A program made the translations under genes and the position numbers. A stretch of DNA of 64,000 nucleotides from sequence record OR924452; one strand, written 5' to 3'. Below, piece after piece: positions 23,923 to 58,697 of this stretch. Origin of the DNA: Escherichia phage 241. Each line of letters begins with the position of its first letter. The stretch's first letter is position 1. The notes under the pieces were generated by a model. The model saw only the letters and a list, made by a program, of their open reading frames with translations. It did not search any database and had not been told where the DNA came from.

Positions 23923-23947
23923 ATTTAAAATTTATTCAATAAACGGG

Positions 23948-23976
23948 GTTTACTTCTTCAATAAACCCCGTATACT
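23948..23976 (+). promoter_or_regulatory. sigma70-like early promoter (-35 GTTTAC, -10 TATACT, 17-nt spacer)
   Basis: GTTTACTTCTTCAATAAACCCCGTATACT; same architecture repeated at 58621 and 42577/42929. Confidence 0.5.
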
Positions 23977-24025
23977 TCATTCCATAAGCAGCACAACACT
24001 GACTCTGAAATGAAGGAACTACATC

Positions 24026-35739: not shown

Positions 35740-35851
35740 AGAATCGCTTTACTTCATTCTTCAATAACCCCCTTTCAACGTATATTGACCTCACTTTAAC
35801 GACGCGCCCATTTAGGGCGCTCAATTTGAACTGAAACAGGAAGACTACACC

Positions 35852-37873
35852 ATGGCAGAATTTAAACCTTTCGCAACGGCTGTTAATGATAACGTGCTGG
35901 CGATGTCCGCAACTGGTCTGTTCATGACCAACGTTGATAAAGATGCTCTGTGGGATTTGTATTTGGCATCCTTCCCAGCTGGTACCAACCCGATGTACCG
36001 CGAACGCACTGAACACGACTGCACCTGCTGTAAACAATTCATCCGTAATATCGGCGGCGTCGTGACTATCGATGCTGACCTGAACGTTATCTCGATTTGG
36101 GACAACATTGAGCTGGGTAACGAATACGATGTGGTCGCGGCGGCGTTATCTGCATATGTCAAACAACACGCAATCGTTGATGTGTATTTCAACGATTCTG
36201 CTAAAGTCGGCCTGTCTCATAACCACGAATCTGGTGAAGACGGCAAAATCCGCACGTATAACCATTTCCACACAGAACTGCTCGGCAGCTATGTCCTGCG
36301 TTCTGATGCTATCGCATCTAAAAAAGGTGAAATCCGACAGGCTATCGAATTATTTGAACGCGGTCTGCGTGAAATTACTCTGGAATCAGCAGAAATCGTT
36401 CTGGAATTGATTGATCAGAATTCTTTGTATCGCGGTGCTGAACATAAAGCTGCGGTGATGGGCTTCGTAGTAGCCAAGACGGCATATGAAGAAATCCCAG
36501 AATCTAACCGTTCTCTGTGGGCATGGCGCACTGGTTATCGTTCAAACAATCATGTTCCACATGGCATTCGCAACACCGTTATCGGTACTCTGTTGACGGA
36601 TATCAGTGAAGGCGTGGAACTGGAAAAGGCCGTTAAGTCGTTTGAAACCAAAGTTGCCCCAGCGAACTACAAACGCCCGACGGCTCTGGTCTCCAAGTCC
36701 ATGATCGAAAACGCTCAGAAAGAAGTGATTGCTCTCGGTCTGGAAGATTCGCTGGCGCGTCGTTATGCAGTTTATGACGACCTGACGATCAATAACGTTC
36801 TGTTTGCAGACCTGGCTGCTCAAAAAGCGATGGATCCATTCGCTCAACTGGCCGCCGAAGTGAAAACGCCGACCAAGTCTCTGGATAAAGTTGAAGAGAT
36901 TGGCATTGATGACTTCCTGAGCAATATTCTGCCGAAAGCGCATTCGATGGAAGTGCTGGTTGAAAACTCGCATACTGGCAACCTTATGTCTCTGGTCGCT
37001 CCGGCTATTGCAGGTGCTCCTAACCTTTTCAAATGGGGCAACGGTTTCTCATGGTCATACAACGGCGAAGTGGCCGACTCCATCAAAGAGCGTGTGAAAG
37101 CGGCTGGCGGTAAAGTCGACGGGTTCCTCCGTGTATCCCTGGCCTGGCACAACAACGATGACCTCGATCTGCATATGTTCTTTAACAATATGGAACATGT
37201 GTACTTCCGCGATCGTCGTTCAATGACTGGTGCTCATCTCGATATCGACATGAACGGTATGGACGGCATCGACCCGAACCGCTCTCCGGTAGAAAACATC
37301 ATCTTCACTGATGAAAGAAAGTTGCGTGACGGTGAATATCGTTTTGAGATTCACAACTACAACCAACGTGAAAAGATCGACGAAGGGTTTGAAATTGAAG
37401 TTGAATACAAAGGCGCTACGCAACGTTTCAGCCACAATGGGTTAAAAGACCAGGGGCGCATCACTGCCGTCGTTCTGACTGTTAAAGACAAACAAGTCGT
37501 TAGCATCAAGTCTGAGCTGGCGAATGTTGATAAATCCAAAGAAATTTGGGGCATTAAGACAGCGACCTTCCAGAAGGTACAGCTGGTCCTGAACTCACCA
37601 AACCATTGGGATGGTGAACAAACTGGCAACAAGCACGTCTTCTTCATCTTGGAAGGTTGTGCGAATCCTGAAGGTACTCGTGGTTTCTACAATGAATATC
37701 TGAAGCCGGAACTGGATAAACATCGTAAGGTTTTTGAAATGCTGGGTAGTAAAATGAAAGTACAACCCAACGAAAACCAACTGTCTGGTCTGGGGTTCTC
37801 GACAACGCAACGCAACCATGTGTTCGTCAAAGTGTCCGGCGCGTTTAACCGTACTGTAAAAGTCATTTTCTAA
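35852..37873 (+). CDS. hypothetical large protein (673 aa)
   Basis: Long ORF with GGAAGA RBS; conserved-looking HDCTCC motif near N-terminus; no family recognised. Confidence 0.6.
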   Translation: MAEFKPFATAVNDNVLAMSATGLFMTNVDKDALWDLYLASFPAGTNPMYRERTEHDCTCCKQFIRNIGGVVTIDADLNVISIWDNIELGNEYDVVAAALSAYVKQHAIVDVYFNDSAKVGLSHNHESGEDGKIRTYNHFHTELLGSYVLRSDAIASKKGEIRQAIELFERGLREITLESAEIVLELIDQNSLYRGAEHKAAVMGFVVAKTAYEEIPESNRSLWAWRTGYRSNNHVPHGIRNTVIGTLLTDISEGVELEKAVKSFETKVAPANYKRPTALVSKSMIENAQKEVIALGLEDSLARRYAVYDDLTINNVLFADLAAQKAMDPFAQLAAEVKTPTKSLDKVEEIGIDDFLSNILPKAHSMEVLVENSHTGNLMSLVAPAIAGAPNLFKWGNGFSWSYNGEVADSIKERVKAAGGKVDGFLRVSLAWHNNDDLDLHMFFNNMEHVYFRDRRSMTGAHLDIDMNGMDGIDPNRSPVENIIFTDERKLRDGEYRFEIHNYNQREKIDEGFEIEVEYKGATQRFSHNGLKDQGRITAVVLTVKDKQVVSIKSELANVDKSKEIWGIKTATFQKVQLVLNSPNHWDGEQTGNKHVFFILEGCANPEGTRGFYNEYLKPELDKHRKVFEMLGSKMKVQPNENQLSGLGFSTTQRNHVFVKVSGAFNRTVKVIF

Positions 37874-38341: not shown

Positions 38342-38752
38342 ATGAAATCTATTACGTGTGATTACTGCGGTCAACCTGCCCAATACGTCGGGGGTGATGT
38401 TGTATACCCCCACCGCCCCGATCTCCGCAATCTGAAGTTCTGGGTATGCTCGCCATGCGACGCTCGTGTGGGTTGCCATACCCATGGGGATGGTAGACAA
38501 CCTCTGGGAAGGATGGCGAATGCCGCTCTCCGTGCTGCTAAGCAGGAAGCTCATAGATCGTTTGACCCTATCTGGAAAAGTGGGCAGAGGAGCAGGAGTG
38601 ATGCTTACAGCTGGCTGGCTCATAATTTGGGGATCAAGAAGCGCGATTGCCATATCGGCTTGTTCGATATCGATATGTGCCGTAAAGTAGTCGCTGTGTG
38701 TAATCAACTAAAGGCACAAGATAATGTCAAAGGAAATACAAGAAGCATTTGA
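38342..38752 (+). CDS. zinc-ribbon protein (two CxxC pairs)
   Basis: CDYCG...CSPCDARVGCH cysteine pattern. Confidence 0.5.
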   Translation: MKSITCDYCGQPAQYVGGDVVYPHRPDLRNLKFWVCSPCDARVGCHTHGDGRQPLGRMANAALRAAKQEAHRSFDPIWKSGQRSRSDAYSWLAHNLGIKKRDCHIGLFDIDMCRKVVAVCNQLKAQDNVKGNTRSI

Positions 38753-39693: not shown

Positions 39694-39960
39694 TTCTTCA
39701 AAAGTCTTTCAAAATCAATAACGTCCGGCAAAATGCTGGGCGTTTCAATTAATAAGCCAAGGTATAATGGCCCAACTGAAAACGCGGGGGAATTTCTTTG
39801 TCCAAGCCATTCATTCGTTCCGGAGTTGATTCTCTAGACTCCCAGTTTAAGCCGAGCGAAGTTTTAATCCAACAAATTGAAACCAATCGTGAATTCATAG
39901 AACACATGTTGGCAAAGCCGGAAGGTGAAGCCGCTCAAACCACCAAAGAAGGTAATAACG

Positions 39961-42177
39961 ATGATTGAATCATTAACATTTAAAAATGCGGTAGCAACCG
40001 TCGCGCCGTCTAACCATGTAATCGTTGTGGATATCTCCGGTTCCATGTACCGTTCACTTCCTGAAGTTCGCAAGCATCTGAAGGAAAATCTCCCGTCTCT
40101 GGTTAAACCAGAAGATACCGTCAGCATTCTTTACTTTTCATCCCGTGGTGATTTCGGTACGGTATTCGCTGGCCGTCAGATCAATAGCGCGACCGATCTC
40201 AGTGAAATCAATAAACTGATTGACCGCTTCCTGCAACCGTCCGGTTGTACGGGATTTGTAGAACCTCTGAAGTTGGCTGCTGAAACCGCGTTGAGCCTGA
40301 ACAAACCTGGTTATGTCAATAACCTGGCGTTCATGACCGACGGCTATGACAACTGCTGGCGCTCGAATGAAATTCTGGCAGCAGCTGAAGTACTGCCCAA
40401 GGCGTTCGATAATATTACATTCATCGAATATGGCTGGTACTGTAACCGCGAACTTCTGGCCCTGATGTCCGAGCGTTCTGGCGCGACTCACGTGTTTGCC
40501 GAAGGTCAGACTGAATATCAGACCGAACTGGAAAACGTACTGAAATCATCTACGCCGAAAGTGGTTGTTGATGTTCCCCTGGTTTACACTCATGCCATTT
40601 ACGTTGAAAACGGCGTGGCAACTGTGCTAGCCGTACAACCCGATGAAGAACACCCGATTGGCCACGTCAGCATCCCTGAAAGCGTTTCTCAGCTGTGGGT
40701 TGTAAACCCTGACATGATCGACCAGCTGGATAATCTGGCAGACACCCAGGCGGCATACGTGCTGGCATTCTATGGCGTGTACACCATGGACGCCGATCTG
40801 GTCTGGGCCGCGCTGAAGAAGACGGGTGACGTCCGCTTCATCAAACAATACAGCAACTGTTTCACCAAGCAGGACTATTCCAACATCAAAGTCGATCTGA
40901 CCCAGGCTATCGTGGATGAAACTCTGCGCGGCGTAGATGGCATCGATTACAATATGGTTCCAGCTGAAGATGCAACGACCATTGTTGATGTCTTGACCTA
41001 CCTGGCCGAAGCCGATGTCTCTGTTGTCACTAAGCATCCGCTGTTCTCTTACAACAGCATCGGTCGCGGTACTGTGCAGAAAGTTGATGACACTGAAGAC
41101 AAGCTGGCTGAACAAATCGCCGAAGCCAAAACCAAAGCAGAGCGTAAAGCGCTGGCTCTCAAACTGGCTGAGCACGAAGATTGGACGCCGGAATTTACTC
41201 CGGTTGATGACAAAGGGATTGTCCCAATTAGCAATCTGGTCTACAATTCAGAGCGCCCTAACATCAGCATTCAGACCGTTCAGCATGGGACGGTTGTTGT
41301 GCCGGAGTTCGTACAGAAGAAATATGAACTCCCTGAAGAACTGGGAACCTGGCGTTATCGTAATTACACCATCGTCAAAGATGGAATCATCAACCTGAAG
41401 ACGATGCCGATTACTGCCGAATCTCCGATTGTCCGAGCTAAGGTTGTCCAAGATTTGATCGCCATGGGCGTTAATGTATTTGGTGGACCGGAAATCTTCA
41501 TCGTTAATTTAGAAAGTGTTCCGATGGTCAACCGCGCCATGACCAAGAACATCAGTGCTGCCGAATTCTTCGCTGACAACGTTCGTCGCGAAGCGCTGAA
41601 GGCAAAACAGAAAGTTCTGAAATTCTATCGTGATGAACTGGTTGGCAAAGGCAATGCAACTGGTCTGGCTTCTAAATATGGTAAAGAAGCCGCCGATTTC
41701 TTGTCGGCAAATGGCATTCGCGACTACGGGTTCTCGCCGAAAACTACTTCTGTGGAATCAACCGATGTCTACATGAGCCGTGAGCTGAATGTGAAAATCA
41801 AAGGTGCTTCGTCGCTGCCGAGCATTGCGTCAGTTATCAAAAAGCAAGCAGATGGTAAAAAACTGAATGTCGCTGATCAGTTGATTGCCAATGCTCTGGC
41901 CGAATACGACGCTTTTGTTAAATCTCCAATGATCACCAGCGTACCTGAAGAGACTCAGAAAAAGCTGATTGAAAGCTGGATCGGAGACGCAGCAAAAGCG
42001 GCCATTAACGAAGTCCGCGCCCTGAACAAAACGCTGTCTAAAGTCGTTTACGGCATCGTCGCTGGTCATGGTTGGTTCACTGATTTGGATCTGGAAGAGT
42101 CTACGATGGATGTAGAAGTTGATGGGGTGAAATACACCGTCACTGCCGAACTGGCCGAAAAAGAAATCAAAATCTAA
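39961..42177 (+). CDS. von Willebrand factor type A (vWA) domain protein with long C-terminal extension
   Basis: MIDAS motif VVDISGSM (DxSxS) and downstream MTDGYDN; ATG 39961 preferred over upstream GTG 39925. Confidence 0.65.
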   Translation: MIESLTFKNAVATVAPSNHVIVVDISGSMYRSLPEVRKHLKENLPSLVKPEDTVSILYFSSRGDFGTVFAGRQINSATDLSEINKLIDRFLQPSGCTGFVEPLKLAAETALSLNKPGYVNNLAFMTDGYDNCWRSNEILAAAEVLPKAFDNITFIEYGWYCNRELLALMSERSGATHVFAEGQTEYQTELENVLKSSTPKVVVDVPLVYTHAIYVENGVATVLAVQPDEEHPIGHVSIPESVSQLWVVNPDMIDQLDNLADTQAAYVLAFYGVYTMDADLVWAALKKTGDVRFIKQYSNCFTKQDYSNIKVDLTQAIVDETLRGVDGIDYNMVPAEDATTIVDVLTYLAEADVSVVTKHPLFSYNSIGRGTVQKVDDTEDKLAEQIAEAKTKAERKALALKLAEHEDWTPEFTPVDDKGIVPISNLVYNSERPNISIQTVQHGTVVVPEFVQKKYELPEELGTWRYRNYTIVKDGIINLKTMPITAESPIVRAKVVQDLIAMGVNVFGGPEIFIVNLESVPMVNRAMTKNISAAEFFADNVRREALKAKQKVLKFYRDELVGKGNATGLASKYGKEAADFLSANGIRDYGFSPKTTSVESTDVYMSRELNVKIKGASSLPSIASVIKKQADGKKLNVADQLIANALAEYDAFVKSPMITSVPEETQKKLIESWIGDAAKAAINEVRALNKTLSKVVYGIVAGHGWFTDLDLEESTMDVEVDGVKYTVTAELAEKEIKI

Positions 42178-42183
42178 ATCTAA

Positions 42184-42210
42184 TTGGCGGGGAAACCCGC
42201 CTTTACTTTC
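42184..42210 (+). terminator. hairpin terminator
   Basis: GGCGGG-GAAA-CCCGCC hairpin followed by TTTACTTTC. Confidence 0.5.
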
Positions 42211-42215
42211 AGGAA

Positions 42216-42533
42216 ATGAATATGAGCAACAAACCGACTTATGTTGATGTCATGCGCGATTTGGCCCAATACGCATGTGACAACCTGAACATGGAAACTT
42301 GGCGCAACGGCGATCATAAAGAAAAGTTCGATAATATCGACGACAACATCGATGCGTTGGCTCCTCTTCGGGCCAAGAGCGATCTCGGCGGTGATGATCT
42401 TGACATGATTGAACTCATCATGGAAGTTGAAGAACAATATGATGTTGAAATCAGTGATGACTGGGTAGGCAAACATGGTGATGATCCCACGCTCGGCGAA
42501 TTAGCTGAATTGGTAGTTGCCCTCCGCAAATAG
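42216..42533 (+). CDS. acyl-carrier-protein-like protein with Asp in place of the phosphopantetheine-attachment Ser
   Basis: LGGDDLDMIELIMEVEEQYDVEISDD resembles ACP LGADSLDTVELVMALEEEF...IPDE but has DDL instead of DSL; start may be 42222. Confidence 0.5.
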   Translation: MNMSNKPTYVDVMRDLAQYACDNLNMETWRNGDHKEKFDNIDDNIDALAPLRAKSDLGGDDLDMIELIMEVEEQYDVEISDDWVGKHGDDPTLGELAELVVALRK

Positions 42534-42925: not shown

Positions 42926-43003
42926 GGGGTTTACTTCTTCTAACGAATATCCTATTATTCAATAACTGGCTAACGTGGGGTTGGCTAGAAAAGGAGATAC
43001 AAA
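42909..43003 (+). repeat. direct repeat copy B (promoter plus 5' leader)
   Basis: Imperfect copy of 42556-42655. Confidence 0.6.
42929..42958 (+). promoter_or_regulatory. sigma70-like early promoter (-35 GTTTAC, -10 TATTAT)
   Basis: Within repeat copy B. Confidence 0.45.
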
Positions 43004-58593: not shown

Positions 58594-58620
58594 ATTATTC
58601 AATAAAAGGGGCAAACGCCC

Positions 58621-58649
58621 CTTTACTTCTTCAATAACCCACGTATAAT
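58621..58649 (+). promoter_or_regulatory. sigma70-like early promoter (-35 CTTTAC, -10 TATAAT, 17-nt spacer)
   Basis: CTTTACTTCTTCAATAACCCACGTATAAT following a GGGGC-AAAC-GCCCC hairpin. Confidence 0.5.
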
Positions 58650-58697
58650 TCTAAACATAAGCAGTACGACACCAACTTGAAAAGCAGGAACTATATC

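Follow-up and report, generated by a model that had tools for sequence, protein, structure and literature searches.

The window analysed here is a 64,000-nucleotide stretch of Escherichia phage 241 (OR924452), a Vi01-like Kuttervirus of the Ackermannviridae. On its plus strand an uninterrupted reading frame for a vWA protein runs from a GTG codon at 39925 to a stop codon at 42177, within a 4-kb stretch that shows 98.6–99.1% identity with the Salmonella phages vB-SalM-SJ2, Vi01, Mooltan and others, each of them a Kuttervirus. The gene and its immediate borders carry the following features.

39798..39968, plus strand: 56-aa ORF with a TTG start, matching phrog_8656 (E 5e-40) and annotated in phages Guerrero and SeF3a
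39925..39960, plus strand: upstream in-frame extension of the vWA gene from the GTG (750 aa), the mechanical ORF start and the less likely one
39961..42177, plus strand: coding sequence of the vWA/MIDAS protein (738 aa plus stop), placed by the ORF list, an upstream GAAGGT and a full-length phrog_2426 match
42186..42201, plus strand: terminator-like GC-rich hairpin, GGCGGG-GAAA-CCCGCC, followed by a T-rich tract, 9 nt past the vWA stop codon

The start of the gene is most likely the in-frame ATG at 39961, which has the Shine-Dalgarno-like GAAGGT about 9 nt upstream and gives a protein of 738 aa, the length found in most GenBank records and database homologues. The GTG is used in few records (for example SeF3a), and alignments with homologues begin at the ATG. 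The preliminary description correctly placed a real ORF at 39961-42177, but its length of 750 aa fits the GTG start only; the 12-residue discrepancy arises because that length counts from 39925. With some 740 stop-free codons at 46–49% GC, a chance origin is excluded and the ORF is a real, intact gene. Its product is 100% identical to a protein of Salmonella phage vB_Sen_ST2, and the gene is publicly annotated in SJ2/Vi01-like phages as ‘VWA domain-containing protein’. The protein matches PHROG 2426, a catalogued phage family with no assigned function, over its entire length (E = 0, 1258 bits; residues 1–738 on profile positions 2–736 of 736).

The stop codon of the 56-aa ORF overlaps the vWA start codon (ATGATTGA), which suggests possible translational coupling of the two, and this ORF is not conserved beside the vWA gene outside the Ackermannviridae. 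In Guerrero it is called a ‘putative acyl carrier protein’, apparently on account of a G-V-D-S-L-D motif; its 56 residues are too few to make an ACP fold. An ACP-like gene directly follows the vWA gene (42216-42533, plus strand; Pfam PP-binding E 4.8e-7; PHROG 4154, ‘acyl carrier protein’). Its product reads L-G-G-D-D-L-D-M-I-E-L where the canonical ...D-S-L-D... would be expected, so that, going by the AcpP motif, an Asp presumably takes the place of the phosphopantetheine-bearing serine. In that case a true carrier role would be impossible, and the protein may be an acidic mimic. Relative to Guerrero, the window lacks at about 39794-39803 a 368-bp segment (L001 12796-13163) that carries the 119-aa ORF GUERRERO_123. 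The flanks of this indel are 99–100% identical, and because of it megablast matches are returned in two or three pieces.

Domain architecture and conserved residues

Numbered from the ATG, the protein can be divided into the following parts.

40018..40509, plus strand: vWA domain core, residues 20–183 (Pfam VWA)
40030..40044, plus strand: MIDAS motif D24-I-S26-G-S28, with D in 244, the first S in 243 and the second S in 244 of 246 family members
40249..40251, plus strand: MIDAS threonine T97, conserved in 246 of 246
40339..40341, plus strand: MIDAS aspartate D127, inside T126-D127-G128...N131, with D127, G128 and N131 each conserved in 246 of 246
40546..40710, plus strand: beta-sandwich, about residues 196–250, probably completed by an N-terminal strand at residues 3–6 (structural comparison)
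40711..40920, plus strand: predicted helical bundle, about residues 251–320 (helices 250–318 in the AF2 model), with conserved G289-D290 and N-C-F-T-K303-Q304-D-Y-S
40921..42174, plus strand: orphan C-terminal module, about residues 321–738, mixed alpha/beta and confidently modelled, of no known fold

The Pfam VWA domain (PF00092) is found above its gathering cut-off (29.9 bits against 23.8, E 8e-7), and the phage protein has the Rossmann-like alpha/beta fold of vWA domains. Its MIDAS is complete, with D24-x-S26-x-S28, T97 and D127 all present, so that the intact motif (DISGS...TDG) reported in the preliminary description is borne out and extended by the threonine. The five MIDAS residues are 99–100% conserved in an alignment of 246 full-length homologues, which includes representatives of clusters at 50% identity, and they are intact even at 22–27% identity, in Bacillus phage AR9 gp067, Ralstonia phage RP13 ORF156 and Rhizobium phage RHph_Y65. 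Since neither loss of the MIDAS among homologues nor a Rossmann fold of another kind was seen, the vWA/MIDAS call holds. As judged from the alignment, this shows a MIDAS under strict selection for metal and ligand binding, and does not indicate what is bound.

Beyond the vWA domain, a beta-sandwich is packed on it, and the AF2 model has the order N-terminal strand (3–6), vWA domain, strands (200–248) and helices (250–318). ArnB, YfbK and Sec23-24 have in common a vWA domain that splits a beta-sandwich, followed by a helical bundle (ArnAB paper, PMC12852372). Because strand, vWA domain, strands and helices come in matching order, we assign the modelled residues 1 to about 300 to a core of the ArnB/YfbK/Sec23-24 type, in which the bundle, judged by domain order, is probably the equivalent of the ArnB/Sec23 helical domain. 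The best structural matches are to ArnB, ITIH and Sec23-24 rather than to BchD or NorD, with 300–305 residues for Sec24 and 252 residues for Sec23A.

Each of these relatives differs from the phage protein in other respects. The prokaryotic vWA proteins of ArnB architecture (ArnB/ArnE of Sulfolobus, Catenulispora 4fx5 and E. coli YfbK) are 11–16% identical to it in sequence, and at 380–430 residues they stop after the helical bundle, whereas the phage protein runs on for about 420 residues. ArnB has a zinc-finger/FHA partner, ArnA, for which no conserved counterpart was found; nor was a pairing with a kinase or phosphatase, and the protein contains no zinc finger, the feature that docks on the sandwich, with phospho-regulation, in the ArnB class. 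The likeness to Sec23/Sec24, the COPII coat core, is one of architecture only: the phage protein is without the N-terminal zinc finger, a gelsolin-like domain was not detected and there is no membrane-coat context. ITIH1/ITIH4 give the best sequence-profile match and a near-best structural match to the vWA domain plus flanking sheet, but these proteins are secreted by eukaryotes and have a VIT domain, a different C-terminal part and unrelated biology. Nothing sets the protein apart from PHROG 2426, of which it is a member and which is found in the Ackermannviridae, RB43-like T4 relatives, AR9 and others.

Searches of Pfam (with 13 family members as well), NCBIfam, PADLOC and the PDB, the last by sequence and by profile, matched nothing in the part following the vWA domain, and the whole protein has no PADLOC match at E <= 0.1, that is, to no known defence or anti-defence family. 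The preliminary description had about 550 C-terminal residues uncharacterised; this stands for sequence matching, but some 60–120 of them can be assigned structurally, to the beta-sandwich and probably to the helical bundle, which leaves about 420–480 residues as an orphan alpha/beta module. This module may be a new fold. Its invariant or near-invariant residues are R432-P-N434-x-S436, R467, D474-G475, K551, G590-F-x-P593, D602-x-Y604, S617 and W705-F706. Conservation of at least 93% (n=246) is found for D290, K303, Q304, Y364, R432, N434 (100%), S436, R467, D474-G475, N524, K551, G590-F591, D602, Y604, S617 and W705-F706, most of which are kept in relatives at 22–27% identity. Family members have a mean net charge of about -14; the protein is acidic, as is its conserved C-terminal hairpin, which ends ...EKEIKI.

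Distribution of the family and its genomic neighbours

Searching by word index gave 240 homologues, almost all 700–770 aa long and with full-length alignments down to 34% identity, and tblastn located the family in 503 of 50,697 phage records. Its carriers include Ackermannviridae that infect Salmonella, Escherichia, Klebsiella, Dickeya, Serratia, Erwinia and Aeromonas. RB43-like and related T4-type phages with Klebsiella, Enterobacter, Cronobacter and Citrobacter as hosts also carry it, as do Pseudomonas phage pf16, Rhizobium T4-like phages, Bacillus phage AR9 and Ralstonia RP13; loci in IMG/VR include contigs of 300–450 kb. A profile of the C-terminal part alone matched 1338 clusters formed at 50% identity, 857 of them at E <= 1e-30. 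Among the best 150 of the 1338, most matches begin at about residue 250–300 in proteins of 700–800 aa, the rest (about one-fifth to one-quarter) are two-stretch matches or short, probably truncated, sequences, and no clear alternative architecture was seen. Throughout the family the C-terminal module goes together with the vWA part, in a fixed architecture.

Among cellular genomes, sampled as one per species across 185,579 species, the family turned up at only six loci. One of these (NZ_JBHSCL010000010.1, ‘Flagellimonas marina’, 178,077 bp) encodes proteins 69–91% identical to ORFs of phage RB43, itself 180.5 kb, and is most likely a T4-like phage genome, contaminant or co-sequenced, outside the bacterial chromosome. 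The other five are in islands or MAG contigs with no common context. The family is thus essentially confined to phages, and with 1338 clusters it is not rare, contrary to the initial view of vWA proteins in phages. No functional study of the family was found; papers mention the vWA annotation only in passing.

For MoxR ATPases, the window ORFs of at least 90 aa were scanned for Walker-A motifs, and the annotation of the close relative Guerrero (all but about 6 kb of its genome) and the neighbours of the gene in 42 lineages were examined. The scan yielded two helicases and one 152-aa ORF, and a MoxR ATPase was found neither in the window, nor in that part of the Guerrero annotation, nor recurring within 8 kb of the gene in the 42 lineages, in agreement with the lack of a nearby partner reported earlier. 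In Bacillus phage AR9, g028/g029 resembles a classic MoxR-vWA pair and is expressed from early on (Table S4, PMC5312081); this pair is distinct from the family studied here.

Clustering of all ORFs within 8 kb of the vWA gene at 92 loci (42 lineages when grouped at 55% identity) did not identify a plausible specific partner gene. The commonest neighbour family, topoisomerase II, occurs in six of the 42 lineages, and NAPRTase, a TnsA-like nuclease, the major capsid protein and PhoH follow, each in at most six. Small flanking ORFs were rejected as conserved partners, having no similarity between lineages. A DUF3268 zinc-finger gene lies 1.2 kb upstream of the vWA gene (38342-38752, plus strand; Pfam E 7e-38). 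It was considered as an ArnA-like partner and rejected, its distribution being unrelated to that of the vWA gene: it is present in 681 phage records, mostly unrelated siphophages of Pseudomonas, Vibrio, Xanthomonas and Enterococcus.

The 673-aa gene upstream (35852-37873, plus strand; PHROG 1735), with which co-occurrence had been raised in the preliminary description, is similarly rejected as a partner. The phyletic distributions are discordant, the gene being also in Xanthomonas phages and apparently absent from RB43-like phages, and the two are neighbours in only 4 of 42 lineages. The 673-aa protein matches nothing in Pfam, NCBIfam, PADLOC or the PDB sequences and is named ‘putative DNA-directed RNA polymerase’ in some records. 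It is conserved in full length (40–50% identity) in phages that differ widely from one another, namely in Caulobacter phiCbK-like, Bacillus Bastille-like, Vibrio, Stenotrophomonas and Phaeobacter phages and in cyanophages, and constitutes a second large orphan family that deserves separate study.

Expression signals, timing and location

In this window the vWA gene belongs to a co-directional block of replication, recombination and nucleotide-metabolism genes, and its settings are similar at loci L015 and L016, in RP13 and in RHph_Y65. The hairpin at 42186..42201 is the only plus-strand terminator-like site between genes in the region 35.5–43.5 kb, and terminators are annotated at the equivalent place in phages Mooltan and Matapan. 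As this sole site comes after the vWA stop codon, the 673-aa gene and the vWA gene may share one transcription unit in this phage.

The motif CTAAATA occurs on the plus strand at 2967, 9482, 13732, 18513, 19731, 28688, 61553 and 62149, about 25–35 nt before the start codons of mostly structural genes, and looks like a late-promoter element of this phage. It is absent from the intergenic region upstream of the vWA gene. Nor does the T4-type TATAAATA occur upstream of the gene; this consensus is found only twice in the window, which is chance level. A TATAAT at 39763-39768, upstream of the vWA gene, is without a -35 element. A repeated cassette on the plus strand, at 23936-23995 and 58599-58660, has a GC-rich hairpin overlapping or preceding TTTACTTCTTCAATAA(A/C)CC(C/A)CGTATA(C/A)T, with -35-like TTTACT and -10-like TATACT or TATAAT, and is probably, from its motifs, a combined terminator and early-promoter unit. 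Looser relatives of it are at 35748-35786, upstream of the 673-aa gene, and at about 42930-42965.

The AR9 homologue is a late-class gene, with FPKM of 0.96, 106 and 431 at 5, 20 and 40 min. Evidence on timing is therefore mixed, since by contrast the gene in phage 241 is in a block of replication genes with no CTAAATA upstream. In the virion proteome of a Vi01-like phage the vWA protein was retrieved once, compared with 196–311 times for structural proteins, and the AR9 annotation leaves the homologue unmarked as a virion protein while several of its neighbours are marked. We read the vWA protein as non-structural.

Possible roles of the vWA protein

It is quite possible, if a little short of probable, that the protein is a stand-alone, soluble, acidic, non-virion adaptor that depends on its MIDAS. 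This reading builds on what the analysis shows: the fold, the conservation of the MIDAS, the fixed architecture, the absence of a MoxR or other conserved neighbour and a distribution restricted to phages. That the MIDAS captures a ligand, that the protein acts as an adaptor and what kind of target it has are what we infer. The N-terminal 300 or so residues would present a vWA domain with complete MIDAS, packed against the beta-sandwich and the helical bundle. By analogy with the ArnB/YfbK/Sec23-24 class, the partner would complete a Mg2+ or Mn2+ at the MIDAS with an acidic or phosphorylated side chain, and the C-terminal 420–480 residues would bring a second activity, binding or catalysis, to bear on the partner once captured. 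As the family occurs in phages of both Gram-negative and Gram-positive hosts, the partner would be either a bacterial component of very wide conservation or a protein that large myoviruses share.

If the conserved polar residues of the C-terminal module formed an enzyme active site, ‘adaptor’ could be too weak a word. The module would then be an enzyme of new fold, acting for example on a nucleic acid or nucleotide-derived substrate, and the vWA domain would only target or regulate it. Thirteen polar residues at least 93% conserved over a span of 330 residues (D290, K303, Q304, R432, N434, S436, R467, D474, N524, K551, D602, Y604 and S617), mostly kept in relatives at 22–27% identity, and the recurrence of the gene in DNA-metabolism blocks speak for such an enzyme, which we nevertheless think unlikely. 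Those same blocks, here and in L015, L016, RP13 and RHph_Y65, count against a late morphogenesis or maturation factor, i.e. a non-structural chaperone or scaffold for heads, tails or packaging whose MIDAS holds a structural protein. AR9 kinetics that are late, like those of the portal protein, are in keeping with this role, as are the confinement of the family to large contractile-tailed and jumbo phages and the location of the gene in several lineages 2–5 kb from major capsid protein, prohead protease or baseplate genes. However, these structural neighbours are on the opposite strand and found in only 4–5 of 42 lineages, and a late-type CTAAATA is missing upstream in this phage, making an assembly role distinctly unlikely.

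The features examined disfavour three other explanations. The protein might be the substrate-adaptor half of a MoxR-vWA remodelling or chelatase pair (as in CobS/CobT, BchI/BchD, RavA/ViaA and NorQ/NorD), borrowing a MoxR ATPase of the host. This is very unlikely: besides the lack of a phage MoxR gene in the window, in the Guerrero annotation covered and among recurrent neighbours in the 42 lineages, the MoxR-associated proteins CobT, BchD, ViaA, NorD and CbbO differ from the phage protein, which is without a cognate AAA+ gene, has its vWA domain N-terminal, finds its best structural matches elsewhere and is unrelated in its remainder, and with hosts from Bacillus to Rhizobium and marine bacteria a shared host MoxR would be hard to expect. 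An adhesin of the virion or tail, using the vWA domain extracellularly as in pilus-tip adhesins, is highly improbable in view of the single proteomic retrieval, the unmarked AR9 homologue and the non-structural gene block; in addition, an identity of 34–50% kept up from end to end in phages whose hosts are unrelated would not be expected of receptor-binding proteins. A Ku-like DNA-end-binding protein would share the N-terminal vWA domain of Ku70/80, but the beta-barrel/ring core of Ku does not follow it here, and this identity is improbable in the extreme.

The gene, its vWA annotation and the PHROG 2426 family are already public. To these we add the assignment of an ArnB/Sec23-24-type core, the strict family-wide conservation of the MIDAS, a C-terminal module of no known fold, the absence of a MoxR or conserved neighbour and the late expression of the AR9 homologue. 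On present evidence the outcome is a better description of an annotated family, and a new system is not revealed. The protein is among the larger conserved phage proteins without a function, carried by Ackermannviridae used in biocontrol of Salmonella, E. coli and Klebsiella, by RB43-like T4 relatives and AR9-type phages, and on many environmental contigs of 300–450 kb, and its strictly selected MIDAS offers a precise experimental handle on what such phages grip inside the cell. Should the target of the proposed adaptor be a host complex, a new mode of host manipulation would come to light; should it be a phage protein, a missing accessory factor of assembly or replication would be identified. 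A bolder possibility, on the unlikely side yet worth stating, is that an ArnB-type head and a new-fold C-terminal module with a conserved site make up a phage-specific, AAA+-independent machine, which would capture a universally conserved bacterial or phage component via the MIDAS and modify or sequester it. If true, this would be a new class of phage effector, with more than 1000 sequence clusters in large myoviruses and jumbo phages.
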